Assembly: GCA_963422365.1 (NCBI GenBank)
Contig: OY729426.1
Coordinates: 640,001-704,000, forward strand
Reading direction: 5' to 3'
From: Nitrospirales bacterium
GTDB taxonomy: Bacteria; Nitrospirota; Nitrospiria; Nitrospirales; UBA8639
Length of the DNA: 64,000 bases
A program made the translations under genes and the position numbers. This document shows positions 59 through 33,519 of the stretch, piece by piece. The notes below the pieces were generated by a model. That model was given only the letters and a program-made list of their open reading frames with translations, searched no databases and had not been told where the DNA came from. Numbering within the stretch: the stretch's first letter is position 1; every line of letters begins with the position of its first letter.

Positions 59-931
59 ATGTTTTCCGGATCTCTCGTTGCGATCGTCACGCCGTTTCAG
101 CACGACGCGTTCGACGAACAATCGTATAGCGAGTTAATCGAGTTTCAGATTGCCAACGGCACGCACGGCATCGTTCCATGTGGCACCACCGGCGAATCCG
201 CCACGCTCTCGCACAAGGAGCACGAGCGCGTCGTGGCGTTGACGGTCGAAGTCGTCAATCGACGTGTCTCGGTCATTGCCGGCACCGGATCCAACGCCAC
301 GGACGAGGCAATTGCCTTTACCAAACACGCCAAACACGCCGGGGCAGACGGCGCGCTGCTGATTACGCCCTATTACAATAAACCCACGCAGGCAGGCCTG
401 TATCAACATTATGCGGCCGTGGCCCAAGCGGTCGACCTTCCACTGATTCTCTACAACATTCCGGGGCGCACCAGCGTGAACATGACACCAGCCACTATTG
501 CGCGCATCGCCAAACTCACCAACGTGGTGGGGATCAAAGAAGGCAGCGGGTCGTTAGGGCAGGTCTCCGAGATCATACACCAATGCGGCGACGATTTGAC
601 CGTGCTCTCCGGAGATGATCCGCTGACCCTTCCCATGATGGCGCTGGGCGCCAAAGGGGTGATTACGGTGACCGCCAACGTGGCGCCGAAAGACATGGCC
701 GCCATGGTGAATGCAGCCCTGGCAGGGAACTTTGCCGAAGCGCGCTCCTATCATTTTAAACTCGCCCCCTTGTTCGGGGCCTTGTTCTATGAGACCAACC
801 CCATTCCGGTCAAAGAAGCCTTGGCCATGATGAACAAAATCGAACCCGAACTCCGACTCCCTCTCACCCGGTTGTCTGCCGACAACCGGGAACGGCTTCG
901 TTGCGTCATGAACGACATGGGGTTGATCTAA
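59..931 (+). CDS. dapA: 4-hydroxy-tetrahydrodipicolinate synthase
   Basis: GTTGES, PYYNKPTQ, LYNIPGRT and GIKE (Schiff-base Lys) motifs; adjacent to dapB. Confidence 0.97.
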   Translation: MFSGSLVAIVTPFQHDAFDEQSYSELIEFQIANGTHGIVPCGTTGESATLSHKEHERVVALTVEVVNRRVSVIAGTGSNATDEAIAFTKHAKHAGADGALLITPYYNKPTQAGLYQHYAAVAQAVDLPLILYNIPGRTSVNMTPATIARIAKLTNVVGIKEGSGSLGQVSEIIHQCGDDLTVLSGDDPLTLPMMALGAKGVITVTANVAPKDMAAMVNAALAGNFAEARSYHFKLAPLFGALFYETNPIPVKEALAMMNKIEPELRLPLTRLSADNRERLRCVMNDMGLI

Positions 932-935
932 ATCC

Positions 936-1760
936 ATGGCTTCCCCAACCAACGTCGTCATCACCGGCGCCGCCGGCCGAATGGGGAAACGGCTGGTTTC
1001 CCTTGTCAAAGCATCGTCTCGTCTGCAACTGAGCGGAGCCATTGAAGCCCAAAGACACCCGGCCCTGGGAACAGATGCCGGAGAGTTGGCAGGGTGTGGA
1101 CGCCTCGACGTTTCCGTGACCGACGATCTCGCCACGGTGTTGCCCCAAGCCGACGTCGTGGTTGATTTCACCGCGCCGCCGTCCACGTTGACCCATTTGT
1201 CGCAAGTGGTCCGGCACAAACGCGCCATCGTCATCGGCACCACGGGATTTTCGCTCGACGAAATGCATCAACTGCGTCGGCACGCCGAGTCCATCCCCTG
1301 CGTACACGCTCCCAACATGAGCATGGGCATCAACGTGTTGCTCCAGATGATCGGAACCGTGGCCCAAGCCCTCGGCGACGACTATGATCTCGAAATTGTT
1401 GAGGCTCATCACAACAAGAAAAAAGACGCGCCAAGCGGCACCGCGTTGAAATTAGCGGAAGCCTTGGCCGCGGCCAAAGGCTGGGACCTGGAACAAACCG
1501 GAGTCTATGCCCGGCACGGAATGACCGGGGAACGACCCCAGCACGCCATCGGCATCCAGACGGTTCGAGCCGGTGATATCGTGGGCGATCATACCGTACT
1601 CTATGGTGGGCCAGGAGAACGGATCGAGATCACGCATCGCGCCCATAATCGAGACCCATTTGCGCAAGGGGCCTTGCGCGCCGCAGAATGGGTGGTGAGT
1701 CAGCCGCCGGGGTTGTACGGTATGGCTGACGTGCTCGGGTTATCTTGCAACGCTCGATGA
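936..1760 (+). CDS. dapB: 4-hydroxy-tetrahydrodipicolinate reductase
   Basis: GAAGRMG, VIGTTG, EAHHNKKKDAPSGTA, GDIVGDHTV motifs. Confidence 0.97.
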   Translation: MASPTNVVITGAAGRMGKRLVSLVKASSRLQLSGAIEAQRHPALGTDAGELAGCGRLDVSVTDDLATVLPQADVVVDFTAPPSTLTHLSQVVRHKRAIVIGTTGFSLDEMHQLRRHAESIPCVHAPNMSMGINVLLQMIGTVAQALGDDYDLEIVEAHHNKKKDAPSGTALKLAEALAAAKGWDLEQTGVYARHGMTGERPQHAIGIQTVRAGDIVGDHTVLYGGPGERIEITHRAHNRDPFAQGALRAAEWVVSQPPGLYGMADVLGLSCNAR

Positions 1761-1835
1761 GATGCTCAAATCTGGCACATAGTTGAACGTGGAGCAGCGC
1801 AGAAACTGCACAAAAAGTTTCTGGGATAACGAACC

Positions 1836-2669
1836 GTGATCTTGAAACTTCTTGCAGGCCTCTTCAAAAAAGCGAGAGCCGTTGACTCTGACGAAACTTC
1901 TGTGCCGTTGCCTGACTTGACGACGGATGCTCCAATGCCCAAGCCCGGGCTGGCACGGTCACACCATGAATCTCCGAAGGGTCGCAATGTAGCATACACC
2001 AAAACCATCTTGTGCTTGGCCAATTCACGGAAGCACGGTGGCCACTGTCTCGCCGGCAAGGAGATTCGGGCGGACGGGCAAATCGGCGGCTGGATTCGCC
2101 CGGTACGCGATCGGGAATACGAGGAAATATCGGAATCCGAGAGACAGTACGAAGATGGAAGCGCCCCGCGAGTGTTGGACGTTATTGACGTGCCGTTACT
2201 CGATGCGCGGCCCAAGGATTATCAGCAGGAAAATTGGCTGCTTGATCCGGAGCGTCATTGGCATACGGTTCGCCGTTTCCAGTGTGATGATCTGGCCCAA
2301 TTCACCGACAAGGTCGTACCACTGTGGAATAACGGATATAGCACAGCCAACGGATGGAATAACCGAATAGCGTACTCTGTCGCCTCCTCCCTAGACCGTT
2401 CGTTGCGTCTCATCAAAGTGAACAGGCTTGAACTGTTTGTATCCCGACCAGGAAATGATTTCGGCAACTACCGGCAAAGCGTACAGTGACGTTTTCAATA
2501 TGGCGGATCGGATTACTGGTTGCGCGTCACCGACCCTGATTACGAGCGGCAGTATAAACAAAAAGACGATGGTCGTTACCAGATTGGAGAATGTTTTCTC
2601 GCCATAAGCCTCGGCGAGCCTTTTGGCGGCTACGCTGACAAACTCATCGCCGCCATCATCGAATCCTGA
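1836..2669 (+). pseudogene. Dual OB-fold domain protein interrupted by an in-frame TGA at 2487-2489
   Basis: CLANSRKHGGHCLAG...WIRPV...QQENW. After TGA 2487 the same frame continues RFQYGGSDYWLRVTDP...ISLGEPFGGYADKLIAAII to TGA 2667-2669, matching the expected C-terminal OB half. Confidence 0.75.
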
Positions 2670-2683
2670 CGGAGACATGCGTT

Positions 2684-3319
2684 GTGAATGCCACTCAATA
2701 CCCCGTCTTCACCGTCGGCCACTCCAACCATTCGCCGGAAGCGTTCATCAAACTCCTCCGGCGGCACGGCGTGGCTGGAGTGGCCGATGTTCGCTCGTTC
2801 CCGTACAGCCGCTCTACTCCCCATTTCAATCATGAGAACTTGAGACGGCTGCTGGACGACGTGGACATTGCCTACACGTTCCTGGGCGGGGAACTGGGTG
2901 GCCGGCCGGCTGACCGTTCCTGCTACGACGCCAACTGGCGAGTTCTGTACGACCGGGTAATGGACACCGACCCGTTCGATGACGGCATCCGTCGTGTCAT
3001 CCGGAGCGCCGACGAGCATCGTGTCGCCCTCCTGTGTACCGAGAAAGAGCCGCTCGAATGCCACCGCACATTGTTGATTGCCAGGGTCCTTACAGAACGC
3101 GGCGTTGCCGTTGAACATATTCTCGCCGACGGCCGTCTGGAAAATCACGACACCGCCACGGAGCGGCTGCTGGACATGTTCAAGTTGCCCCACAACGGCG
3201 ATCTGTTCCGTTCCGGAAGCAACGTCATGGCCGATGCACTGACCCGTCAGGCACAGAAAGTGGCCTACATCGGTGAAAAGCCGCCCGTTTACGGTGACAG
3301 ATGGGGAAACGTATCGTGA
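2684..3319 (+). CDS. DUF488 family protein (long type)
   Basis: FTVGHSNH, DVRSFPYSR, ELGGRP, LLCTEKEPLECHR motifs. Confidence 0.88.
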   Translation: MNATQYPVFTVGHSNHSPEAFIKLLRRHGVAGVADVRSFPYSRSTPHFNHENLRRLLDDVDIAYTFLGGELGGRPADRSCYDANWRVLYDRVMDTDPFDDGIRRVIRSADEHRVALLCTEKEPLECHRTLLIARVLTERGVAVEHILADGRLENHDTATERLLDMFKLPHNGDLFRSGSNVMADALTRQAQKVAYIGEKPPVYGDRWGNVS

Positions 3320-3750
3320 AGGTGTACACCATCGGCTTCACCAAAAAATCCGCCGCCGATTTTTTTGAACGGCTCTGGGAGTCTGGGGCGAAACGCGTGG
3401 TGGACGTCCGGCTGAACAACGTCTCACAGATGGCGGGCTTTGCCAAGAAAGGCGACCTGGAGTATTTTCTGAACAAAATTTGCCGAATGAAATACGTCCA
3501 CGTACCGGAACTGGCGCCCACCAAAGAGATGCTGACCGCGTATCGCAACGAGCATCACGACTGGGCAACCTACGAACGCCAGTTCCTTGCCCTTATGGAC
3601 GAGCGGCGCATTGGGAAAAATGGCATAAAAAAGACAATCTCCAGCGGATGCCTGCTCTGCAGCGAGGACAAACCTCACCATTGTCATCGCCGGCTGGTGG
3701 CGGAATATGTACAAACAACGTGGAGGGACGTGGAGATCATTCATCTATAG
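3316..3750 (+). CDS. DUF488 family protein (short type)
   Basis: YTIGFTKKSA, DVRLNNVSQMAGFAK, LLCSEDKPHHCHRRLVAEY; GTG start overlaps the upstream stop (GTGA). Confidence 0.88.
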   Translation: MKVYTIGFTKKSAADFFERLWESGAKRVVDVRLNNVSQMAGFAKKGDLEYFLNKICRMKYVHVPELAPTKEMLTAYRNEHHDWATYERQFLALMDERRIGKNGIKKTISSGCLLCSEDKPHHCHRRLVAEYVQTTWRDVEIIHL

Positions 3751-4168: not shown

Positions 4169-7100
4169 ATGGCGAAGCCGACAAAGCACGCCAAGCGGGA
4201 CATCGAGACTTACGCACACACCGGCAAAAAGCGCGTGAACAACCCGCCGGTCGGTCTGGTGACGCCGGATACGGACCTGGACGCGGGAAAGAAGACCTAC
4301 GCCCACGACCCCCATCTTGACCCGCAACTGCAATGGGCCGGCAAGTCGGACCAGACGTCCTTTGACGTGCCGACGGTCTCGCTTCACGTCCACGAACGGA
4401 TCGACCCGCGCACGATCGTCGAAGCCGTGCGAAAGCGTAACGGCCCGTCTGCCGGCCAGGCAGGCGCGGAACCGCAGCTCTCGTTGTTTGCCGCACCCGA
4501 AGAAAACCCACCGATCCGCCAGGCCATCGAGTTCTACAAACACCGACACAACTGGACCAACCGCCTGATCGCCGGTGACAGCCTGCTCGTCATGAACAGC
4601 CTGCTTGAGAAGGAAGGCATGGGTGGGAAAGTGCAGATGGTCTATCTTGACCCGCCTTACGGCATCCGCTATGGCTCAAACTTCCAGCCATTCGTCAACC
4701 GGCGCGAGGTCATCGACGGCAGGGACGAGGACCTGACCGGCGAGCCAGAGCAGATCCGCGCCTTCCGCGACACCTGGGAACTCGGCATCCACTCCTACCT
4801 CGCTTACCTGCGTGACCGCCTGCTGCTGGCGCGGGAACTACTGACCGAAACCGGCAGTGTTTTCGTGCAGATCGGCGACGAGAACGTGCATCGGGTGGGC
4901 ATGGTGATGGACGAGATCTTCGGCGCAGGGAACCGCATGGCAACGATTTCCTACGCCACGACCGGCGGTAGTTCAGCCAACACATTGCCACAGGTCGCCG
5001 ACTATCTGCTCTGGTACGCCAAGGATCGTCAGCAGGTGAAGTATCGACAGCTTTATGAACCGCTGACGCGGGCGGAAATCGTCGAACAGATGAATTGGGA
5101 CGCCATGGTCGAACTTGAAGATGGCGTGTGCCGCGCTCTGACGCGCGAGGAAAGAGTCGATCCGGACAGGTATCTCCCTAAAGGCGCGCGCTTGTATCAG
5201 CGGGCCATGCTCACCTCTCAAGGTGAATCCCAGACGGGAAGGTCGGAACTCTACGAAGTCGGAGGGAGGACATATATCTGTCAGAGGAATCAGCAATGGC
5301 GGGTCGGCAAGGCAGGTCTTGACCGGCTATACGAGATCGGGCGCTTGGATCTCAGCGGGCAGCACAAGAGACTGGCTTGGAAGCATTACGAAGACGAGAT
5401 CCCAGGAAAGCGTTTGAACAACGTATGGGCCGATCTGGCTCGTCCTATGGACAAACGCTATGTCGTCCAGACCGCCCCGAAGACCATCCAGCGCGCCATC
5501 CTGATGACCACCGACCCGGGCGATCTGGTCTTCGACCCGACTTGCGGCTCCGGCACCACGGTGCACGTCGCCGAGCAGTGGGGCCGGCGCTGGATTGCCT
5601 GCGACACCTCGCGCGTGGCCGTCGCCATCACCCGGCAACGGCTGATGACAGCCCACTTCGACTATTACGAACTTGCCCATCCCGATGAAGGCGTCGGTGC
5701 CGGGTTCCGCTGCCGCAGCGTGGCCACTGTCTCGGCGCGCACCCTCGGCTACGACGAGCCGCCCAACAAGACGATCCTCTACGACCAGCCGCACCTCGAC
5801 CGCAAGAAGACCCGCGTCACCGGACCGTTCACCGTCGAGGCCGTGCCCGCACCCGCAGTGAAAGCCCTGGACGAGATTGTTGACCCTCACCCCGACCCTC
5901 TCACGGAGGGAGAGAGAGAAAAAAGGGAACGCTCTCAAGGGCGGGGGATGAATGCGGACGCCGACCTGTCCATTGCCCGCTCCGGCGAAACCCTGCGGCA
6001 GAGCGACTGGCGCGACGAACTGCTGAAAACCGGCATCCGCGGCAAGGCCGGCCAGCGCATCTCCTTCGCCAGGCTAGAGCCAATGCCGGCCACGCGGTGG
6101 CTGCACGCCGAGGGCGAAACCCGACCGGACGATTCAGGGGCGAACGAGGTCCGCGAGCCCGCCACCGCCTACAACCCCGAGCGCGTGGCGGTCTCCTTCG
6201 GGCCGGAGCACGCGCCCCTGGAGCAACGCCAGGTCGCCCGCGCCATCGAAGAGGCGCAGAGCCTTGTCCCGAAGCCGAAGATCATCGTCTTCGCCGCCTT
6301 CCAGTTCGATCCGGAGACGGCCAAGGACATCGACGAGACCCACTGGCCGGGCGTCACGCTGCTCAAGGCGCAGATGAACGCCGACCTGTTGACCGGCGAC
6401 CTCAAGAAGAAACGCGCCAGCAACGAGAGCTTCTGGCTGATCGGCCAGCCGGACGTGGCGGTTTCGAGTTTCGAGTTTGTCGTTTACGGTAAAGGCAAGG
6501 ACAGGATTGCTGAATATGGAACGTTCAAGAAGCTATCGGGACTTGATTGTCTGGAAGAAATCAATCGACTTGATTGGCAAGGTCTATGCCTCTACGCGCT
6601 CCTTTCCCAGGGAAGAGATCTATGGCATTATCTCGCAGATACGCAGGGTTGGGATTTCGATAGCGGCCAATATCGCGGAAGGCCAAGCCAGAAACACGAG
6701 CGGGGAGTTCCGGCAGTTTCTTGGAATAGCCCGGGGATCGTTGGCGGAATTGGAGACGTTGCCGACGATCTCGTAGAATTCGGGATATTCGACCTCGCCG
6801 GATGCCGAAGGGTTATTGAGCGACTGCGAGGAGATCCCCAGGTTGTTGGCAGGCTTGCAGAAATCGCTCAAGCCCTGAACTTCCCCATCACTCCCCACAC
6901 TAACAACTACCGGCTCGAGACTCAAAATCTGCACAGCGTCGCCGTGCACGGCTTCGACTACTACAACACCAAGACCGGCAACGTGGAATCCGGCGGTGCG
7001 GACAGGATCGCCCTGTGGATGCTCGACCCGGACTACGACGGCCGCAGCCTGTTCCCCCGCCAGGTCTTCTTCCCCATGGCCGGTGCGCAGGACGGCTGGG

Positions 7101-7264
7101 CAAGGCTCGCCCGCAACCTCAAGGCGGAGATTGATATGGACCTGATCGAGACGTATCGCGGCGCCGTCTCACTGCCCTTCGAGGCGGGCGAACATAAACG
7201 CGTCGCCGTCAAGATAGTCGACGACCGGGGCATCGAGAGCTTGAAGATCGTGGAGGTGGGATGA
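4169..7264 (+). CDS. Type III-like RM site-specific DNA adenine methyltransferase (Mod) with in-frame insertions
   Basis: YLDPPYGI catalytic motif before DPTCGSGTT SAM-binding motif (beta class); C-terminal AVKIVDDRGIESL; upstream of a Res helicase-nuclease. Confidence 0.9.
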   Translation: MAKPTKHAKRDIETYAHTGKKRVNNPPVGLVTPDTDLDAGKKTYAHDPHLDPQLQWAGKSDQTSFDVPTVSLHVHERIDPRTIVEAVRKRNGPSAGQAGAEPQLSLFAAPEENPPIRQAIEFYKHRHNWTNRLIAGDSLLVMNSLLEKEGMGGKVQMVYLDPPYGIRYGSNFQPFVNRREVIDGRDEDLTGEPEQIRAFRDTWELGIHSYLAYLRDRLLLARELLTETGSVFVQIGDENVHRVGMVMDEIFGAGNRMATISYATTGGSSANTLPQVADYLLWYAKDRQQVKYRQLYEPLTRAEIVEQMNWDAMVELEDGVCRALTREERVDPDRYLPKGARLYQRAMLTSQGESQTGRSELYEVGGRTYICQRNQQWRVGKAGLDRLYEIGRLDLSGQHKRLAWKHYEDEIPGKRLNNVWADLARPMDKRYVVQTAPKTIQRAILMTTDPGDLVFDPTCGSGTTVHVAEQWGRRWIACDTSRVAVAITRQRLMTAHFDYYELAHPDEGVGAGFRCRSVATVSARTLGYDEPPNKTILYDQPHLDRKKTRVTGPFTVEAVPAPAVKALDEIVDPHPDPLTEGEREKRERSQGRGMNADADLSIARSGETLRQSDWRDELLKTGIRGKAGQRISFARLEPMPATRWLHAEGETRPDDSGANEVREPATAYNPERVAVSFGPEHAPLEQRQVARAIEEAQSLVPKPKIIVFAAFQFDPETAKDIDETHWPGVTLLKAQMNADLLTGDLKKKRASNESFWLIGQPDVAVSSFEFVVYGKGKDRIAEYGTFKKLSGLDCLEEINRLDWQGLCLYALLSQGRDLWHYLADTQGWDFDSGQYRGRPSQKHERGVPAVSWNSPGIVGGIGDVADDLVEFGIFDLAGCRRVIERLRGDPQVVGRLAEIAQALNFPITPHTNNYRLETQNLHSVAVHGFDYYNTKTGNVESGGADRIALWMLDPDYDGRSLFPRQVFFPMAGAQDGWARLARNLKAEIDMDLIETYRGAVSLPFEAGEHKRVAVKIVDDRGIESLKIVEVG
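4443..4465. repeat. Short palindromic repeat (GCCYGTCTG-N5-CAGGCAGGC) in frame in mod
   Basis: Imperfect 9-bp inverted repeat resembling intergenic copies at 15583-15612 and 17080-17102; encodes PSAGQAG. Confidence 0.5.
5884..5918. repeat. CCCTCACCCC...CTCTC-N-GGGAGAG palindromic element in frame in mod
   Basis: CCCTCACCCCGACCCTCTCACGGAGGGAGAGAGAG encodes PHPDPLTEGERE; similar copy inside larC. Confidence 0.65.
6460..6929 (+). mobile_element. Four-helix-bundle gene cassette bounded by inverted heptamer repeats, inside mod
   Basis: Left flank GTTTCGAGTTTCGAGTTTGTCGTTT, right flank CAACTACCGGCTCGAGACTCAAAATC (18/26 Watson-Crick plus 4 G-U); sits between Mod segments LIGQPDV and VHGFDYYN. Confidence 0.7.
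6516..6878 (+). pseudogene. Four helix bundle protein (TIGR02436 / 23S rRNA IVS / Avd-like) nested in the +1 frame of mod; internal TAG 6774-6776
   Basis: SYRDLIVWKKS...FPREEIYGIISQIRRVGISIAANIAEG...EFRQFLGIARGSLAELET; after the TAG the frame continues NSGYST...EEIPRLLAGLQKSLKP to TGA (120 codons total). Confidence 0.88.
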
Positions 7265-8076
7265 TGAAGATGATGAACAAAGCAAAAGCTATCGAACGCC
7301 TGGGGAAGGTACTGAATGAAGTACCGGAATTGAAGAAAATATCCAATTCACCCCAATTCGATAAATGGCTCAGAAATGCACAGCTAGCCATTACGAATAC
7401 GTTTGGAAACGAGTCACGCCACATTACGGATTTCAACGAGGCGATAGAATCACTGAATCCAGCACTGGGTCTATTTACGCACGACTCTGAATTCCAAGCG
7501 TATATTAGAGGATTGGAGCGTGCTGCGGCCATTCTCGAATCAATGATCGAAGAGATCGGGGAATACTGGGAGGAAGGCGAAAAATCATCCGGCGTTTCCA
7601 ATCCAGAAGTCGAGATTCCCGAAAATACGAATAAGGTCTTCATTATTCATGGCCGTGACGAAGCGGCACGAGAAACAGTTGCGAGATTCCTGGAAAACCT
7701 CAAACTCGAACCAGTTATCCTCCACGAACAACCGAACAAGGGCCGCACGATCATCGAGAAGTTCGAGGCTTATGCAGGGGTCGGCTTCGCTGTAGTTCTG
7801 TTAACACCGGACGACAAGGGCAATCTTCGCGATGATCAATCCAAGGGCAATCTTCGTGCACGGCAGAATGTCGTTTTCGAGTTCGGATATTTCATCGGAA
7901 AACTCGGCCGGGGAAAGGTCTGCGCCTTGGTGAAGGGCGACATCGAAAAACCTTCGGATTACGACGGTGTTCTTTATATTCCCATGGACGATAAGGGCGC
8001 GTGGAAAATGGAACTCTTTCGGGAACTGAAAGACGCTGGATTCGATATCGACACGAATCGGACGTTCGAGCTATGA
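7261..8076 (+). CDS. TIR-like nucleotide-binding domain protein (Cap12/Pycsar-effector-type TIR)
   Basis: KVFIIHGRDE, LHEQPNKGRTIIEKFE, FAVVLLTPDD, RARQNVVFEFGYF, PSDYDG. Confidence 0.88.
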   Translation: MMKMMNKAKAIERLGKVLNEVPELKKISNSPQFDKWLRNAQLAITNTFGNESRHITDFNEAIESLNPALGLFTHDSEFQAYIRGLERAAAILESMIEEIGEYWEEGEKSSGVSNPEVEIPENTNKVFIIHGRDEAARETVARFLENLKLEPVILHEQPNKGRTIIEKFEAYAGVGFAVVLLTPDDKGNLRDDQSKGNLRARQNVVFEFGYFIGKLGRGKVCALVKGDIEKPSDYDGVLYIPMDDKGAWKMELFRELKDAGFDIDTNRTFEL

Positions 8077-8384
8077 CCGTGCGTATCCAGATACCCTCCG
8101 ACCTGATCGCCGCCTTTTGACAACGTTGGCGGATTACGCGCCTTGAACTCTTCGGGTCCGTGTTGCGCAAGGATTTCGGTCCGAACAGCGATGTGGACGT
8201 GTTGGTCAGTTTCGAAGAAGATGTCAAGCACACGCTGTTCGATTTGGATGACATGGAACTGGAATTGAAGGAGATATTCGGTCGCGAAGTTGATCTGGTC
8301 AGTAGGCGGGTGGTTGAAGCGAGCCTCAACTATTTGCGCAGAAACAGCATTTTGAAATCTGCCCAGGTGATCCATGGATCATGA
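8073..8384 (+). pseudogene. MNT minimal nucleotidyltransferase antitoxin with in-frame TGA at 8118-8120
   Basis: ATG 8073 [44 protein letters not shown]...GREVDLV. Confidence 0.85.
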
Positions 8385-8747
8385 CGCGCCACATATTCTG
8401 GACATCATCAGGTCCGCACGATTGATCGGGGCCTATCTCGAGGGTGTCTCGCGGGAAAATTTCATGCGGAACGTGCAGTTGCAGGATTCCGTCATTCGAC
8501 GTATCGAAATTATCGGTGAGGCGGCGGGGCGGCTTTTTCGGCGCCATTTCGGCAGAGACATACGGCAATTCCGTGGGGTCGGATGATTGGAATGCGTAAC
8601 CGCATGATTCACGTGTACGATGGAATCGATATGGCTCTCGTGTGGACTACAGCTCGTAAGCCAATCCCTGAATTGCTGACGCTAGTTGAGCCTCTGGCGT
8701 CACCGGAACCCAGCCCATCGCCGGGAAGCGAGCAGGGGAACGGCTGA
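8374..8747 (+). pseudogene. HEPN (DUF86/HepT-like) RNase toxin, frameshifted at the T run near 8534-8538
   Basis: QDSVIRRIEIIGEA in one frame, then IPWGRMIGMRNRMIHVYDGID (RxxxxH) in the next frame to TGA 8745-8747. Confidence 0.85.
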
Positions 8748-8750
8748 CTG

Positions 8751-11561
8751 ATGGCGCAAACGACCATCGACAGGCTGATCATCAACTCGCCCTACGAAGA
8801 ACCGGCGCGGCACTGGAGTTATGACATCGAGAAGCGTGCTTTCTCTCTCGCGGAGGGTCGCCGGCAGGCCGGATACATCGTCGCGTCGGAAGGCTCCAGG
8901 ACCTTCGACGACCCCGGTAGATTCGTCGAAATCCCTTTGGTCAATCTGATTCGGCCGCGGGTGCGAGCATGGCGCGAAACGGGATATCCGGGCGTGACGG
9001 GAATCACCAAGCGACTGCTGGAGCAGTGGCGGGACCCGGAGGAGTTCGATAGCCGCCGGTTGTTCTTCTGTCAATTGGAGGCCGTCGAGACGCTGATCTG
9101 GCTTGCGGAAGCGCCAGCGGCCGATAAGGTCGGCGTGGAGATTCCTTCCGACGGCGGAACATTTGAACGCCTGTGCGCCAAGATGGCGACCGGCTCCGGC
9201 AAGACCGTCGTCATGGCCATGGTCATGGCCTGGCATATCCTGAACAAGGTCGCCTATCCACAAGATACCCGGTTTGCCAAGAACGCTCTGGTCATCGCCC
9301 CCGGCCTGACGGTCAGGAACCGTCTCGCTGTTCTGGCACCATCCCATCCTGAAAACTACTACGACGCCTTCCGCATCGTGCCGTCGTCCCTGCTCGACAA
9401 GCTCCGCCAAGGCAAGGTCGTGGTCCGCAACTGGCACGCGCTCAACTGGGAAACCGAGGAGAAGATCAAGGGGAAACGCAGCGTGGACAGGCGCGGCGCC
9501 AAGAGTGACGCGGCCTATGTCCTCGATGTCCTAGGCGAGATGGCCAGCGCCCGCAACCTCCTCGTCATCAACGACGAGGCGCACCACGCATGGCGCGTTC
9601 CCCCTGAGTCGAAGGTTCGGGGCGTTGCGAGGGGCGCGATCGAGGAGGCCACCAAGTGGGTGGGCGGCCTCGATCGGATCAACAAGGCACGCGGCATTCT
9701 CGCCTGTTACGACTTCTCCGCCACGCCGTTCGCTCCTTCGGGTAAACGGAGCTCGGAGGAGTCCCTGTTCGGCTGGATCGTGAGCGACTTCGGGCTGAAC
9801 GACGCCATCGAGTCCGGCTTGGTCAAGACCCCGCGCGTGGTCATTCGCGACGACGCGGTGCCGGACGCCAAAACCTATAAATCACGCCTCTACCACATCT
9901 ACAACGATGCGGAAGTCAAGAACGACCTGAACCGCCCGGCCGAAGCCACCGACCCCCTGCCGGACCTCGTGATCAACGGCTACCACCTGCTCGGCTACGA
10001 CTGGCGCGAGACGGCGAAGGACTGGAGCGAGAAGGGATTCCGAATCCCGCCGGTCATGATCACCGTTGCGAACCGCACGGAGACCGCGGCTCGGATCAAG
10101 TATGCGTTCGATCACAACAAGGTCCACATCAAGGAGCTTTGTGACTCGGAGCGCACCCTGCACATCGACTCCAAGGTACTGGGTCAAGCCGAAGCCGCCG
10201 AGGAACCGATCGCAGAAATCGGCGTCGGCGAAAGTGCGAAAGACGAGGACGACGGCCAAGATCACAACGTGACCAGGAAACAGCAAGCGGAGCGACTGCG
10301 CTTGCAGGTGGACACCGTGGGCCAGCCCGGAAAGAAGGGCGAGCAGATCCAGAAGGTGATTTCCGTCGGGATGCTGTCCGAGGGTTGGGACGCAAAGACC
10401 GTGACCCACATCATGGGCTTGCGAGCCTTCACCAGCCAGTTACTCTGCGAGCAGGTCGTCGGACGCGGCCTGCGCCGAACCTCCTACGAGGTCAACCCTG
10501 ACACCGGCTTGTTCGAAACGGAGTACGTCAACATTTTCGGCGTGCCTTTCACGTTCCTGCCGCATGAGTCTGCGGAAGGCGTCATCCCTGAACCGCCGAA
10601 GCCGAAGACGGCTATCGAGCCGGTAACGGACAAAGCGGCGTTTGAAATTTCGTGGCCGAACGTGATCCGCATAGACCACGTCTACCACCCGCACCTTTCC
10701 CTGGATTGGCAAACAGTGAAGCCCCTGGAGCTTGACGCCAGCCAGACGGCCAAGATCGCGGAGATTTCCCCCATCGTCGATGGCAGAACGGACGTGACGA
10801 AGATCGAGGCCATACACTTGGAGAATCTGGCGCGGGAGTTCCGCACGCAGCGGATCATCTTCGAGACCACGCGGGACGTGTACGATCAAATGCAGGAGAA
10901 CTGGCGTGGCGGCAGAGCATTCCTGCTGGCCCAACTGGTGCGGCTGGTCGAGCAGTTCATCCTGTCGGATCGCATCAACGTCAGTCCCGCACTGTTCGTT
11001 CGCGACGATCTCAAGCGCCGCCTCATCATCACGCTCAACATGACCAAGGTGGTCCAACACATCTGGGAAGCGATTCGCTTCGACAACACCGAGAAGCTGG
11101 AACCGGTGTTCGACCGGGACCATCCCATCCGCTCAACCGGCGACGTGGGGACGCGGTACACCGGCAAGCCCTCCGAGCACACCGTGAAAAGCCACATCAA
11201 TTTCTGTGTCTATGACAGCACGTGGGAGGCATCTGAAGCCTTCGAGCTTGATCGCAACCCCGCAGTGGCGGCCTGGGTCAAGAACGATCACCTCGGCTTT
11301 GAGGTGCTCTACCTCTATCGCGGCGTGGTGAGGAAGTACCGTCCCGACTTTCTCATCCGGCTCAGGTCGGGTGACATGTTGGTCTTGGAAACCAAGGGCC
11401 GCGACAGCGATCAGGATCGAACCAAACGCCGGTTCCTCGACGAATGGGTCAACGCCGTGAACGCGCGTGGCGGCTTCGGTCGCTGGACCTGGGACGTGTC
11501 CACGGCTCCTGGCGACATCCAGGATATCCTTGCGCGACATTCGTGCGAGACCGCCGCGTGA
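8751..11561 (+). CDS. Type III-like restriction helicase-endonuclease (Res, BPTD_3080-like)
   Basis: KMATGSGKT, INDEAHH, MLSEGWD, EQVVGRGLRR, and C-terminal YRPDF...LETKG (PD-(D/E)xK). Confidence 0.9.
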   Translation: MAQTTIDRLIINSPYEEPARHWSYDIEKRAFSLAEGRRQAGYIVASEGSRTFDDPGRFVEIPLVNLIRPRVRAWRETGYPGVTGITKRLLEQWRDPEEFDSRRLFFCQLEAVETLIWLAEAPAADKVGVEIPSDGGTFERLCAKMATGSGKTVVMAMVMAWHILNKVAYPQDTRFAKNALVIAPGLTVRNRLAVLAPSHPENYYDAFRIVPSSLLDKLRQGKVVVRNWHALNWETEEKIKGKRSVDRRGAKSDAAYVLDVLGEMASARNLLVINDEAHHAWRVPPESKVRGVARGAIEEATKWVGGLDRINKARGILACYDFSATPFAPSGKRSSEESLFGWIVSDFGLNDAIESGLVKTPRVVIRDDAVPDAKTYKSRLYHIYNDAEVKNDLNRPAEATDPLPDLVINGYHLLGYDWRETAKDWSEKGFRIPPVMITVANRTETAARIKYAFDHNKVHIKELCDSERTLHIDSKVLGQAEAAEEPIAEIGVGESAKDEDDGQDHNVTRKQQAERLRLQVDTVGQPGKKGEQIQKVISVGMLSEGWDAKTVTHIMGLRAFTSQLLCEQVVGRGLRRTSYEVNPDTGLFETEYVNIFGVPFTFLPHESAEGVIPEPPKPKTAIEPVTDKAAFEISWPNVIRIDHVYHPHLSLDWQTVKPLELDASQTAKIAEISPIVDGRTDVTKIEAIHLENLAREFRTQRIIFETTRDVYDQMQENWRGGRAFLLAQLVRLVEQFILSDRINVSPALFVRDDLKRRLIITLNMTKVVQHIWEAIRFDNTEKLEPVFDRDHPIRSTGDVGTRYTGKPSEHTVKSHINFCVYDSTWEASEAFELDRNPAVAAWVKNDHLGFEVLYLYRGVVRKYRPDFLIRLRSGDMLVLETKGRDSDQDRTKRRFLDEWVNAVNARGGFGRWTWDVSTAPGDIQDILARHSCETAA

Positions 11562-27345: not shown

Positions 27346-28065
27346 ATGTCCACGCCGTCGCGCATCGAATGGACCGAGACCACATGGAACCCGGTCACGG
27401 GCTGCACGAAAATCAGCGACGGCTGCAAGCATTGCTACGCCGAGCGAATGGCAACACGGCTCCACGCCATGGGCGTCACGAAATACCGGAACGGGTTCGA
27501 CCTCACCGTTCACGAGCCGGCACTAGACGCACCGCTCCGGTGGAAAAAACCTCGGCTCGTGTTCGTGAACTCGATGAGCGACCTGTTCCACGACTCCGTC
27601 CCTACCGGCTTCATCCAGTCGGTGTTCCGCGTCATGAATCAGGCATCGCCGCACACGTTTCAGGTGCTGACGAAACGCCCTGCTCGCGTCATGGACCTCG
27701 ATCACGAACTGAACTGGACGCCGAATATCTGGCTCGGCGTGAGCATCGAATCCGAAGCGTGGCTCAACCGCGTGGCGAAACTGATACACGCCGGCGCCCA
27801 CGTGAAATTCCTGTCTCTCGAACCGTTGCTGGGGCCGTTGCCCGGCCTGGATTTGGCAGGAATCGATTGGGTGATCGTCGGCGGAGAATCAGGGCCCGGT
27901 GCCCGGCCCATGAAGGCGGAGTGGGTGCGGGACATCCGCGACCAGTGCCTGCGACGCGGCGTCCCGTTTTTCTTTAAGCAGTGGGGCGGCGTGCGCAAGC
28001 ACCGGACCGGTCGCGTGCTCGATCACACCACGTGGGACCAAATGCCACGTTTCACAACAATCTGA
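27346..28065 (+). CDS. DUF5131 / phage Gp37-Gp68 family three-Cys (radical-SAM-like) protein
   Basis: [64 protein letters not shown]. Confidence 0.92.
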
Positions 28066-28205
28066 CGCCATGCCAAGACTCCTCCCAGCCCACCGCATCC
28101 GGGCCGCTCGATCAGACCGGACTGTCTCGACGCCCTCGGACTGACGGTGACGGATGTTTGTTCTCAACTCGCCCTTGCACGTGTCCAAGCCAAGAAGCCC
28201 CCATC

Positions 28206-30970
28206 ATGGCCCCTGTGAATCAAACCCCGGAACAAAAAGCCCGCGACAACATTGATAGGATGTTGGTTGATGCGGGTTGGGTCGTCCAAGACAAAAAGGG
28301 CATCGACTTCAATGCCGGGCCAGGAGTGGCCGTCAGAGAATATCAGACAGATAGTGGGCCGGCGGATTATGTGCTGTTTGTGGATCGTCAACCGGCAGGA
28401 ATTGTTGAGGCCAAGAAAGAAGAAGAAGGGCACTGCCTGACCACAGCGGAAACACAGTCCGATGACTACGCCAAAGCGAAATTGAAATGGATTGCCGATA
28501 GCAAGCCACTTCCCTTCATCTATGAAAGTACGGACGTCCTGACGCGGTTTCGAGACGAACGTGCCCCGAAACCACGATCCCGGCCGGTCTTTACTTTTCA
28601 CCGGCCCGAAACGTTCAAGGCATGGATATCACAGCCTGAAACTCTGTGTTCCCGCTTACTGGATCTTCCCGTTCTCAATACCGAAGGATCGCGGGACTGC
28701 CAGATCAGGGCCATCAACAATCTGGAGCAATCATTTCAAGAGAATCACCCGCGCGCCCTGATCCAGATGGCCACCGGATCAGGGAAGACCTTTACGGCCA
28801 TCACGTTCATCCACCGATTGCTCAAATTCGCCGATGCGAAACGAGTGTTGTGTCTGGTGGATACTAAAAACCTAGGCGAGCAGGCCGAACAGGAGTTCGT
28901 GGCCTACGTGCCCAATGATGACAATCGCACATTCACCGAACTGTATACCGTGCAGCGCCTGAAATCCGGTTATATCGCTTCAGATATCCAGGTTTGTATC
29001 AGCACCATTCAGCGGCTTTACTCTATTTTGAAAGGGGAACCGTTAGACGAAGCCGCTAAACTGGAAAACCCCGCCGAACGGCTTCAACCTCAAAGCCCCG
29101 TGCCCGTGAGTTATAACGGGAAAACTCCCATTGAGTTCTTTGCTTTCGTCGTCATTGATGAATGTCATCGGTCGATCTATAACCTCTGGAGGCAGGTATT
29201 GGAGTATTACGACGCGTTTCTTATTGGCTTAACCGCAACCCCGGACAAGCGCACGTTTGGGTTCTTCAATGAAAACGTCGTCAGCGAATACGGCCATAAA
29301 GAGGCCGTGGCCGACGGCGTGAACGTGGGATACGACGTGTACAACATCGAAACAGAAATGACCCAAAAAGGCGCGAAGATTACAGCTAAGGAATATGTAG
29401 ACAAGCGGGACTGGCTGACCCGAAAAAAAACGTTGGACACAGCTAGATGAAGAGGTCGAGTCTGCTCCCAGGGATTTAGACAGAGACATCGTCAATCCCA
29501 GCCAGATCCGAAATATCATTCGGACGTTCCGCGACAAACTTCCTGAAATGTTTCCAGGACGGAAGGAGATCCCTAAAACCTTGATTTTCGCCAAGACCAA
29601 TAGCCACGCCGACGATATGATCCAGATCGTTCGGGAGGAATTCGGGGAAGGCAATGAATTCTGCAAAAAGGTGACGTATCAGATCGAAGAAGACCCAACA
29701 TCCGTTTTGGCGCAATTTCGGAACGATTTCCATCCCCGTATTGCGGTGACCGTAGACATGATTGCGACGGGAACCGAAGTCAAACCACTGGAATGTCTGC
29801 TCTTCATGCGTGACGTGAAAAGCCGCAACTACTTCGACCAAATGAAGGGACGGGGCACTCGTACACTGGAGTACGACGACCTGAAAAAAGTGACGCCCTC
29901 AACGCACAGCGCCAAGACGCACTTTGTGATTGTGGATGCCGTCGGCGTGACGAAATCCCTGAAAACGGATAGCCGACCACTGGAGAAAAAACCGACCGTT
30001 CCGCTGAAAGACCTTCTTTCTGTCGTCATGATGTGGACACGGGATAAAGAGACCATTTCTTCCCTCGCGAACCGCCTGGCCCGGCTTTCCAAACAACTGA
30101 GTGACGACGAACACAAACGGATTACGGAAAAGACCGAGGGCAAGACCATCAATCAAGTTGTTCATGACTTGCTCGATGCCATGGATCCGGATACACAGAA
30201 GAAAAAGGCCCGTGAGGTGAATACCCTTGCTCCCAACCAGGCTCCTTCAGAAGGACAGATCGAAACGGCAAAAGGAGAACTGGTGAAAGAGGCAACAGGC
30301 GTGTTTACCGGTGCGTTGAATACGTTGCTTGAGAATATCCGCCGAAGCCACGAACAGATTATTGATACGGTGAACATAGACACGGTGGAATTTGCCGGAT
30401 GGGATACACGGGCCACGGAGAAAGCCCAGGTACTCATACAGGATTTCACGTCTTACCTCGAGACTCACAAGGATGAGATCACGGCGCTACGCATCTTCTA
30501 TAACCAGCCCTATCGCCGACGAGAATTGACGTATCAAATGATCAAGGACATTCTGGAACAGCTGAAGCGGGAGACCGAACCTCGCACCGCTACGGATCTG
30601 GCAGGCTTATAAACAACTGGACGACTATAAAGGCCAAGAGCCGGTGAGTGAGCTAACGGCACTCGTGGCGCTGATCCGACGCGCCTGCGGCATTGACGAA
30701 ACCCTTTCACCATATTCGGAAACCATTCTCCGGAACTTTCAGCACTGGATCATGAAACGCCACAGTGGCGGAGGCACGAAATTCAATGAAGAACAAATGC
30801 ACTGGTTACGCATGATCCGCGACCATATCAGCAGTTCGTTCCACCTGGATCGTGAGGATCTTGACTATGCCCCATTCGACGCCCAGGGTGGCTTAGGTCG
30901 CATGGCGCAGTTATTCGGTGATGAGATGGATCGGGTAATTGACGAAATGAATGAGGCGTTGGCGGCGTGA
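28206..30970 (+). pseudogene. hsdR: Type I restriction subunit R (EcoKI/EcoEI-like), two frameshifts
   Basis: TPEQKAR, ADYVL, MATGSGKT, IDECHRS, GLTATP, QMKGRGTR; frameshifts at the A8 run 29423-29430 and near 30573. Confidence 0.88.
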
Positions 30971-31783
30971 AGGCAGGAAGGAGTAAGGAAAAAGGGAGAA
31001 GGAAAAAGGATGAAGTCATGGATCTTCGGACTCGGACGAAGGAGTTTGCACTGCAGATCATTCGCCTTTACTCAGGTCTTCCCAAGCGGACCGAGGCTCA
31101 AGTCATAGGCAGGCAAATTATTCGTTCTGGAACGTCTGTGGGAGCCAATTACAGGGAGGCGTATCGCGCGCGGAGCAAAGCGGAGTTCATCGCAAAGGCT
31201 GGCGATTGTTTGAAGGAGATTGAAGAAACCGGATATTGGCTTGAACTGCTTGTCGACTCAGGAATCGTTTCCGAGGAGCAACTTGAAAGCCTGAGAAATG
31301 AATGCGGTGAATTGACTGCGATATTCGTCACTTCAATTCGGAATGCGAAGAGCAACAATGAACGTGGCGCGTGAAGTGATACCAATCGGAGAAGCGCTCG
31401 CCCCGAGAAATGAGAGGATCGCACCTGCCGACTATCCTGAGTTGCCTTATATTGGTCTTGACAACATTGAAGCTCATTCCATGCGTTTACTCGGTTCAAA
31501 ACCTGCTGCAAGCATGAAAAGTTCCGCCAAACGTTTCTATCCCGGTGATGTGCTTTACTCACGGCTGAACCCCTATCTGAACAAAGTCTGGCCGTCGGAC
31601 CGCAACGGCATTTGCTCATCCGAGTTCATCGTGATGCCCGGCAATCATCTCGTGGATCCCAGCTTTCTCGCATTCAGGCTCAACGCCATGGATTTCGTTT
31701 CATTCGCAACCAGCTTGAATGCAGGCGACAGACCGCGTGTAGACGTTGCTCAGATTTCTACCTTTTGCCTTCCTCCTTTTTCC
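30967..31783 (+). mobile_element. Four-helix-bundle cassette bounded by inverted heptamer arrays, enclosing an HsdS TRD
   Basis: Left array of NNNAAGG units at 30967-31016; right array ATTTCTA CCTTTTG CCTTCCT CCTTTTT CC at 31754-31783 (24/30 complementary to 30987-31016). Confidence 0.6.
31018..31374 (+). CDS. Four helix bundle protein (TIGR02436 family), intact
   Basis: DLRTRTKEFALQIIRLY...VIGRQIIRSGTSVGANYREA...SKAEFIAK...LKEIEETGYWLELL...ECGELTAIF. Confidence 0.92.
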   Translation: MDLRTRTKEFALQIIRLYSGLPKRTEAQVIGRQIIRSGTSVGANYREAYRARSKAEFIAKAGDCLKEIEETGYWLELLVDSGIVSEEQLESLRNECGELTAIFVTSIRNAKSNNERGA

Positions 31784-32015
31784 AGTGTGTTCACAAGAAG
31801 AACAGAAAAAAATAGTCGAGAAAATCGAAGCCCGCCTCTCCGTTGCCGAAAAACTGGAACAAGATATTAAGGACGGCCTGAAACAAGCTGAAGCCCTCCG
31901 TCAATCCATCCTAAAAAAAGCCTTTTCCGGACAACTGGTCGCTCAAGACGCCAATGATGAGCCTGCCAGTGTTTTGCTGGAGCGGATCAAGACGGAGAAG
32001 GCTCAGCTCAAATAG
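31358..32015 (+). pseudogene. hsdS: Type I specificity subunit, single TRD, frameshifted near 31781
   Basis: YIGLDNIE, FYPGDVLYSRLNPYLNK, GICSSEF, DRPRV, then in the +1 frame PVCSQEEQKKIV...LRQSILKKAFSGQLV...EPASVLLERIK. Confidence 0.85.
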
Positions 32016-32044
32016 AAAGCCCGGAAAGAGAAGACCGTCGCCGG

Positions 32045-33518
<1,474 letters not shown>

Positions 33519-33519
<1 letters not shown>

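Follow-up and report, generated by a model that had tools for sequence, protein, structure and literature searches.

A 64,000-nt stretch of contig OY729426.1 from a Nitrospirales bacterium (the window) contains a gene for a type III-like DNA methyltransferase, Mod, at 4169..7264 on the + strand. Inside this gene lies a second gene, in another frame, that belongs to the four-helix-bundle (4HB) protein family PF05635/TIGR02436, the 23S rRNA intervening sequence (IVS) protein family. According to the list of open reading frames (ORFs) and the translation, the Mod ORF is open across the whole insert and would encode 1031 aa. An earlier reading of the sequence alone (the sequence-only reading) offered three fates for the insert, namely that it is translated, bypassed or excised. 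The most probable explanation, at roughly 0.78, is that a heptamer-armed 4HB cassette occupies the tip of a hairpin in Mod, that ribosomes would translate through it, and that the 4HB gene is dead in the window. Only the first of the three fates appears to fit; the observations described below support translation through the insert and argue against RNA excision or bypass, as far as sequence comparison can tell.

The inserted cassette and its 4HB gene

The cassette as a whole covers 475 nt (6461..6935, + strand) and replaces about 40 nt of the empty allele. Its limits were set from the homologue alignment, a metagenome contig, alleles of the same genus and the dip in GC content, which is 0.49-0.51 inside the insert and 0.65-0.71 in the flanks. 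The 4HB gene is in host frame +1, and its N-terminal 86 codons (6516..6773, +) cover profile positions 1-75 of 106. This part matches PF05635 with an E-value of 1.3e-27 (96.6 bits, cut-off 33.8) and TIGR02436 with an E-value of 2.4e-25 (88.9 bits, cut-off 24). Both scores are above cut-off, so the profile search that the sequence-only reading had proposed bears out its claim of a 4HB gene nested in the +1 frame of Mod with the host frame open. The same reading had described a 120-codon ORF at 6516-6878 and overlooked an in-frame TAG at 6774..6776 (+). The TAG is codon 87, at about profile position 75 of 106, and the 4HB ORF is open for only 86 codons. The codon is CAG or GAG in three close relatives (L011-L013). 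The remaining 33 codons and the TGA (6777..6878, +) align with intact relatives and have no Pfam match alone. In translation the family homology continues beyond the TAG, and a profile search of the genome that reads through it gives a 4HB match of 113 bits. A Shine-Dalgarno-like site precedes the 4HB start (6497..6506, +); read by eye, it is GGAGG in the relatives and is weakened in the window by specific changes at 6500-6502. An intact ORF of about 110-125 codons with all four helices is present in L011-L013, L017, L019 and L101, and is lacking in the window copy. The 4HB gene of the window is thus a pseudogene.

The three close relatives are loci from metagenome-assembled genomes (MAGs) of Candidatus Entotheonella that carry the window's cassette. 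The cassette is 88-89% identical to the window over 6461-6900, with core bins at 89-95% versus about 72-91% in the Mod flanks. The 4HB ORF is intact in all three, with 120 codons. Within the 4HB ORF, 19 changes are specific to the window in comparison with these loci, and of these 14 are non-synonymous and 5 synonymous in the 4HB frame. The non-synonymous changes include L>P, L>S twice and G>P. By 4HB codon position the 19 changes are distributed 2/10/7 (positions 1/2/3), which means that most of them fall on the third position of the host frame. This small sample (n=19, weak) gives a hint that constraint in the window copy now lies on the host frame. Across the whole insert the window lineage has 38 specific substitutions; one of them creates the 4HB-frame stop, and none introduces a stop into the host frame. 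Indels are absent.

The ends of the cassette are arms built of heptamers. The 5' arm (6461..6488, +) has four, namely GTTTCGA, GTTTCGA and two degenerate units, as recognised from the sequence, the direct repeat and the alignment with L011-L013. The 3' arm (6899..6928, +) has four degenerate heptamers, ACTAACA, ACTACCG, GCTCGAG and ACTCAAA, and is the complement of the 5' arm type, as judged from the sequence, the alignment and a stem in the minimum free energy (MFE) fold. Only two identical tandem units are found in the window arms. At the ends of every nested copy, three to five heptamers in tandem form inverted arrays. Their unit is GTTTCGA-like in the window and L012, GTGACCA in L017, GGGATCG in L019 and L054, and AGTGGAT-like in L015, L020, L026 and L028. 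Despite these differences the two arrays are complementary to each other in each element, which amounts to covariation at the level of whole arms. Heptamer arrays also surround most free-standing relatives (in L033, for example, about 13 and 10 units). Period-7 tracts are slightly shorter in nested than in free-standing copies (Mann-Whitney p 0.026), and both arms reach at least 21 nt in 0/15 nested versus 17/60 free-standing copies; little is made of this difference here. A 4HB gene with a Shine-Dalgarno-like site between inverted heptamer arrays agrees with the earlier description of a transposase-less, IVS-like cassette in a protein-coding gene.

Several searches around the cassette gave negative results. 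The promoter scan found no promoter-like site upstream of the 4HB start; the single site lies inside the gene at 6751-6779. The cassette has no further DNA copy in the window's genome, where the self-match is the only significant one and all others have E-values of at least 0.3. The host-frame peptide of 6461-6928 matches no Pfam family and hence no Hint/intein domain. An intein was considered and ruled out, since neither this peptide nor Mod has a Hint domain.

Empty, filled and nested alleles

Mod relatives were scored by a word-indexed search (8000 in all), and the best 120 were examined at the insert site. An empty-type site with 13-18 residues is found in 98 of these 120, and the other 22 have 152-162 residues. 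The Mod frame is open in all 22 filled homologues, which are predicted proteins and are therefore biased towards open frames. Homologous Mods of about 857-872 aa align without the inserted stretch. The empty site sought by the sequence-only reading in Mod homologues is therefore the majority state. In a metagenome contig with about 87% identity to the window, 6460 and 6936 are linked by 40 other letters. The spacing from GQPDV to GFDYYN is 102 nt in six empty Mod genes of the same genus and 537 nt in the window. Since the empty alleles have about 40 nt of their own at the site, the event was not a simple addition but a replacement that lengthened the gene by a net 435 nt, or 145 codons. The stretch that gave way to the cassette encodes a short native beta-hairpin. 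No target duplication is seen at the cassette ends; the filled allele instead lacks about 40 nt that the empty one has. The sequence-only reading had proposed that removing 6461-6928 (468 nt) would rejoin Mod in frame. The removal does keep the frame, but it does not restore the empty allele with its own 40 or so nt.

The presence of the insert is scattered over the Mod tree. On a FastTree phylogeny of the 120 Mods, built after the insert columns had been taken out, the filled and empty states require at least 18 changes for 22 filled rows, a count drawn from a sample that favours filled rows (the insert adds score) and one that recombination would inflate. Several near-identical pairs differ in state, for example P0004 and P0047. 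In the genus of the window, 38 genomes were searched and ten loci examined; three are filled, six are empty and one was not classified. The filled loci are the window, with its GTTTCGA-type cassette, and L101 and L109, whose AGTGGAT-type cassettes have the 4HB gene intact (PF05635 E 1.3e-37). That a single site within one genus holds two cassette types indicates repeated occupation or exchange between alleles. Since filled alleles lack the native hairpin codons, gain and loss both require replacement, and recombination in the highly conserved flanks would be the simplest route for either. The cassette has probably spread between Mod alleles by recombination or by site-directed insertion.

Mod also has a second variable site, at about 5890-5960 (residues about 575-600). 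In the window this site is a short low-complexity stretch in which the predicted local distance difference test score (pLDDT) of the structural model is below 50. In P0006, P0007, P0026, P0028, P0029 and P0045 it holds a host-frame insert of about 150-160 residues with DUF559 (PF04480) and PF18741. This insert needs five changes on the Mod tree, and both it and an insert at the cassette site are present in P0006, P0007 and P0045. A small palindrome at 5896-5916 in Mod folds no better than shuffles (z 0.11).

Nested copies were sampled in two ways. The host-frame peptide of L012, a query biased to one frame offset, was searched against 401 genomes from the phylum of the window and gave long ORFs with a nested 4HB gene in three other genomes. 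The hosts are a Mod of the window's family (L015), another Mod type from the window's genus (L017) and an Eco57I/MmeI-type enzyme (L019); in all three the 4HB frame is host +1. The second, unbiased sampling used five nested 4HB proteins aligned in their true frame and took the best 80 metagenome loci, nine of which are inside long open ORFs. In 9/9 of these nested loci the host frame precedes the 4HB frame by one base (4HB minus one); neither the other frame nor the opposite strand accounts for any. Each of the nine hosts is a DNA methyltransferase, recognised by PF01555 in five, as Eco57I/MmeI-type in three and by tblastn in L042. The nested relatives match PF05635 with E-values of 1e-35 to 1e-41. 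Among the other 71 loci, tblastn with 11 methyltransferase queries found no closed-frame cassette flanked by methyltransferase halves. The free-standing cassettes (among L020-L099) are mostly between housekeeping genes of one operon, such as gap-pgk (L029), atpA-atpG (L088), pheS-pheT (L091), trpE-trpG (L027, L031) and sdhA-sdhB (L092).

Two side observations concern the nested copies. A conserved Trp codon near the 4HB start is a stop in two unrelated ones (L015:1811-1497, - strand; L021:4001-4357). The hosts of L017 (ORF 10-2223) and L019 (ORF 253-3273) have extra short in-frame stretches away from the cassette, built like the repeats and translated into motifs like VTSGQ and GDQGSG, respectively. 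They may represent solo arms that lack a gene.

Probable translation through the insert, and alternatives

The frame composition of the nested copies suggests that the host frame is read. Stops in the minus-one (host) frame average 5.1 in free-standing copies, where 1/68 has none, and are absent from 15/15 nested copies. In the other alternative frame the mean is 7.25 stops in free-standing and 8.3 in nested copies. A T before a codon starting with AA, AG or GA occurs at 18.3% in free-standing copies and at 0/445 in nested ones. Stops in the minus-one frame can all be removed by synonymous third-position changes in the 4HB gene, which explains why this offset is the one found. In pairs of intact nested copies the differences by 4HB codon position are 17/9/43 (L019-L054), 30/24/49 (L020-L026) and 38/26/54 (L017-L047). 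This third-position bias marks the 4HB frame as the one under amino-acid constraint. In intact nested copies it is thus the 4HB protein that is conserved, with the host-frame peptide just kept open. The 4HB gene is broken in 4/16 nested copies (window, L015, L021 and L042), always by nonsense and never by a frameshift. This would be expected if indels broke the host and were purged for that reason. Since excision or bypass needs neither a stop-free host frame nor a constant offset, translation through the insert is favoured.

In the AlphaFold2 model of Mod the arm peptides form two long antiparallel strands, residues 755-773 and 916-933, that extend the native hairpin. The proposed mechanism is as follows. 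The cassette would sit at a beta-hairpin's tip close to the Mod C-terminus and be akin to the ORF-bearing intervening sequences of 23S rRNA. It would not be removed; ribosomes on Mod would read through it in the frame one base before that of the 4HB gene, and the product would be a Mod with a net 145 extra residues. The translated arms would form a long two-stranded ribbon and the interior a poorly ordered appendage. Intact relatives would also make a separate 4HB protein from the internal Shine-Dalgarno site and ATG. In the window that gene would be dead through the TAG at codon 87, the weakened Shine-Dalgarno site and several helix-breaking substitutions. The residual passenger would stay free of stops and indels only through selection on Mod, whose partner, the restriction subunit Res, is intact. 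The long Mod is probably translated and active, and the internal 4HB start is probably used in the relatives.

A number of observations weigh against this explanation. The arm-versus-arm duplex of the window has a z-score of -0.73, and 214 of 1000 shuffles are at least as good. Nested copies were defined by their open host frame, so the comparison of stop counts is partly circular and its sole check is the tblastn search with 11 queries. The 15-16 nested copies represent about nine lineages and are not independent. In L011 (+14 nt) and L013 (-7 nt) the part of Mod beyond the 3' arm, its C-terminus, is no longer in frame, so not every host has been kept open. The interior of the insert is helical in the structural model, with low confidence, and residues 827-873 have a pLDDT below 50. 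HepT and the type I restriction system of the window look degraded, and decay of defence genes does seem to occur in this genome.

These last points bear on the possibility that Mod was already inactive, its frame being open only because the cassette arrived free of stops and too recently to gain any. Nested cassettes are always stop-free in the host frame, other broken defence genes are present in the window (the split HepT, hsdR and hsdM), and the Mod frames of L011 and L013 are broken at the arm. Against this, the window's 38 lineage-specific substitutions across the insert include the 4HB-frame stop, yet no host-frame stop and no indel, and the changes in the dead 4HB ORF are mostly at the host third position (the weak 2/10/7 distribution of 19 changes). 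The Mod motifs and fold appear intact, as judged from the translation and the model. Res (8751..11561, +) is full length; it matches NF046055, the BPTD_3080 family restriction endonuclease, at 1126.5 bits (cut-off 800), and PF04851. The intact Res is likely the reason why the Mod frame must stay open. An inactive Mod is therefore improbable.

It is slightly less probable again that the heptamer arms are a slippage tract that switches Mod on and off, and that the cassette persists in methyltransferase genes for the sake of such phase variation. Type III mod genes are well known to be switched by repeats. Like phase-variable mod genes, the locus has tandem repeats inside the mod ORF, and the unit number shifts the frame. 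Relative to L012, the 3' arm has two more heptamers in L011 (L011:5440-5520) and one fewer in L013 (L013:5430-5500), and these whole-unit differences put the Mod C-terminus out of frame. Unlike the repeats of phase-variable genes, those described here are the inverted arms of an inserted cassette and are short and imperfect, with two identical units only in the window. The loci L011-L013 are from assembled MAGs and their differences are between loci, not within a population, so that an assembly error is possible. The filled homologues are mostly in frame (22/22, with the open-frame bias of predicted proteins). The differences in heptamer number may reflect phase variation, decay or assembly error.

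Removal of the cassette from the Mod message, by an RNase III-type cut of the arm stem with rejoining or by ribosome bypass, would give a Mod without extra residues. In the RNA MFE fold 6460-6477 pairs with 6909-6926 in a stem of 17 bp with one mismatch and four G-U pairs, and arm complementarity is kept across elements. RNase III excises the 23S rRNA intervening sequences that carry this gene family, according to PMC4990558. The same source describes this excision as leaving the rRNA fragments unjoined. The sequence-only reading had counted a 26-nt stem with 18 Watson-Crick and four G-U pairs; a stem is indeed present in the MFE fold, but it is shorter and no better than shuffles. The whole fold of the window copy has a z-score of -0.73, the flank pairing is matched by the shuffled controls that the same reading had named as a check, and no Rfam family matches 6200-7200 at E up to 1. 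The arm pairing of the window copy is thus no better than chance. In relatives it is better and the stem is clear, since among the nested copies 10/15 had at most 11 of 1000 shuffles as good; this duplex test on flanks of 70-90 nt or 110 nt is blunt, since shuffles also form long loose duplexes. Removal requires no stop-free host frame, no length divisible by three and no constant offset, and all three hold. Removing the insert also does not bring back the native loop, since the empty allele has 40 nt that are missing from the filled one. Excision or bypass is very unlikely on these grounds.

That the 156 codons are a genuine Mod domain with an incidental 4HB similarity in the +1 frame is hardly credible: the Mod-frame peptide can be aligned among the 22 filled homologues and has some helices in its model, but the +1 frame has the PF05635 matches of the window and its relatives, the host-frame peptide has no family match, substitutions are third-position biased in the 4HB frame, and the region is compositionally foreign and empty in most homologues scattered over the Mod tree.

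Surroundings, related systems and significance

The whole Mod matches a single family in the profile search, the PF01555 DNA-methylase domain (E 6e-29). Its AlphaFold2 model, built with 99 homologues, has a mean pLDDT of 82 and a predicted template modelling score (pTM) of 0.84. The best PDB matches of the model in Foldseek are type III Mod subunits, EcoP15I (4zcf, E 6.5e-18) and Mbo45V (7dsu). A beta-class N6/N4 methyltransferase domain, a Mod-like fold and a Res gene in the same operon agree with a type III Mod. Between mod and the Res gene are a TIR-domain gene of the Cap12/Pycsar type (7261-8076, PF10137) and an MntA/HepT pair. The MntA-like gene is at 8160-8384. The HepT gene is in two pieces, 8374-8586 (profile positions 1-45) and 8583-8747 (profile positions 83-118). 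Directly upstream of the mod operon two DUF488 genes lie side by side (2684-3319 and 3301-3750).

The window also has a type I system that looks degraded (27981-33519). Its hsdR consists of three ORFs (27981-29450, 29548-30612 and 30644-30970) and its hsdM of two pieces (32135-32845 and 32842-33519). A second 4HB gene, intact and free-standing (30967-31374, PF05635 E 1.3e-22), has the last piece of hsdR on one side and what is likely a fragment of hsdS on the other. No heptamer arms are seen around it by eye. With 4HB genes in the type III-like mod and in the type I locus, both restriction-modification loci of the window hold one.

The closest known relatives of the cassette are the intervening sequences of 23S rRNA, such as that of Coxiella burnetii, which has 428 nt and a decaying S23p ORF and is excised by RNase III (PMC4990558). 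As far as that account goes, the two have in common a length of about 430-470 nt, a PF05635-family ORF, no transposase and complementary ends (which in the window copy pair no better than shuffles), as well as signs of horizontal gain and an ORF that is often decaying (S23p there, the TAG here). The location differs: the cassette is in the Mod ORF and not in a helix of 23S or 16S rRNA. Its host is a protein-coding gene with an open frame and two-frame coding, and its arms are heptamer arrays, unlike what the text describes for the rRNA elements.

The Rickettsia palindromic elements (RPEs) are inverted-repeat inserts that are translated in frame within a host protein at tolerated surface sites (PMC10969869). 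Like them and like intragenic MITEs (miniature transposable elements with inverted repeats), as described in that source, the cassette is an inverted-repeat element in an ORF that does not break its host. Terminal inverted repeats and an in-frame position agree with an in-frame MITE; the presence of a gene and the lack of a target duplication do not. RPEs are about 150 bp long and have no gene in that description (PMC10969869), whereas the cassette has a conserved protein gene in another frame. Also unlike RPEs as portrayed there, all intragenic cassettes found are in DNA methyltransferase genes, and the native hairpin is replaced with no target duplication seen. The 4HB family is homologous to Avd, the four-helix-bundle protein of diversity-generating retroelements, according to PMC10053308. 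Matches of the nested relatives to bAvd (PF22296) are below threshold (21-34 bits, cut-off 40). No reverse transcriptase and no template or variable repeats were seen beside the cassette, in the course of work that included no search aimed at either.

The short tandemly repeated repetitive (STRR) heptanucleotide repeats of cyanobacteria are tandem 7-base units of varied sequence that are dispersed in genomes. The arms resemble them in consisting of tandem 7-base units of varied sequence. The open-access literature gave no sign that STRR are linked to 4HB genes or to nested positions in methyltransferase genes. Likewise, open-access text gave no published account of 4HB genes that are nested in methyltransferase genes or flanked by heptamers.

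A broader interpretation, which is speculative and rather doubtful, is that heptamer-armed 4HB cassettes are transposase-free, translation-transparent mobile elements. Synonymous choices in the 4HB gene would keep one frame free of stops and the arms would be read as a beta ribbon, hence the cassettes could colonise loops of methyltransferase genes that belong to addictive restriction-modification systems and that the host cannot lose. Cassettes would replace one another at the same site, possibly by way of the Avd-like 4HB protein acting on its own arms.

The finding extends the idea of an intervening sequence from rRNA to protein-coding genes. It is also a natural case of two-frame coding under selection, with one frame conserved as a protein and the other just held open. 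It ties restriction-modification genes to the heptamer repeats of bacteria, long unexplained, and to a protein family that is very common but whose function is unknown. Gene callers will miss the nested gene and report oversized methyltransferases. Since one loop can be empty or filled with either of two cassette types within a genus, comparative tests of methylome and expression would be straightforward. The window itself is a natural experiment, since its passenger gene is dead by a nonsense codon and the host frame survives. Such a combination is what one would predict if the frame is held open by selection acting on the host rather than on the cassette. The copy in the window is a passenger in decay within a host gene that is still open.

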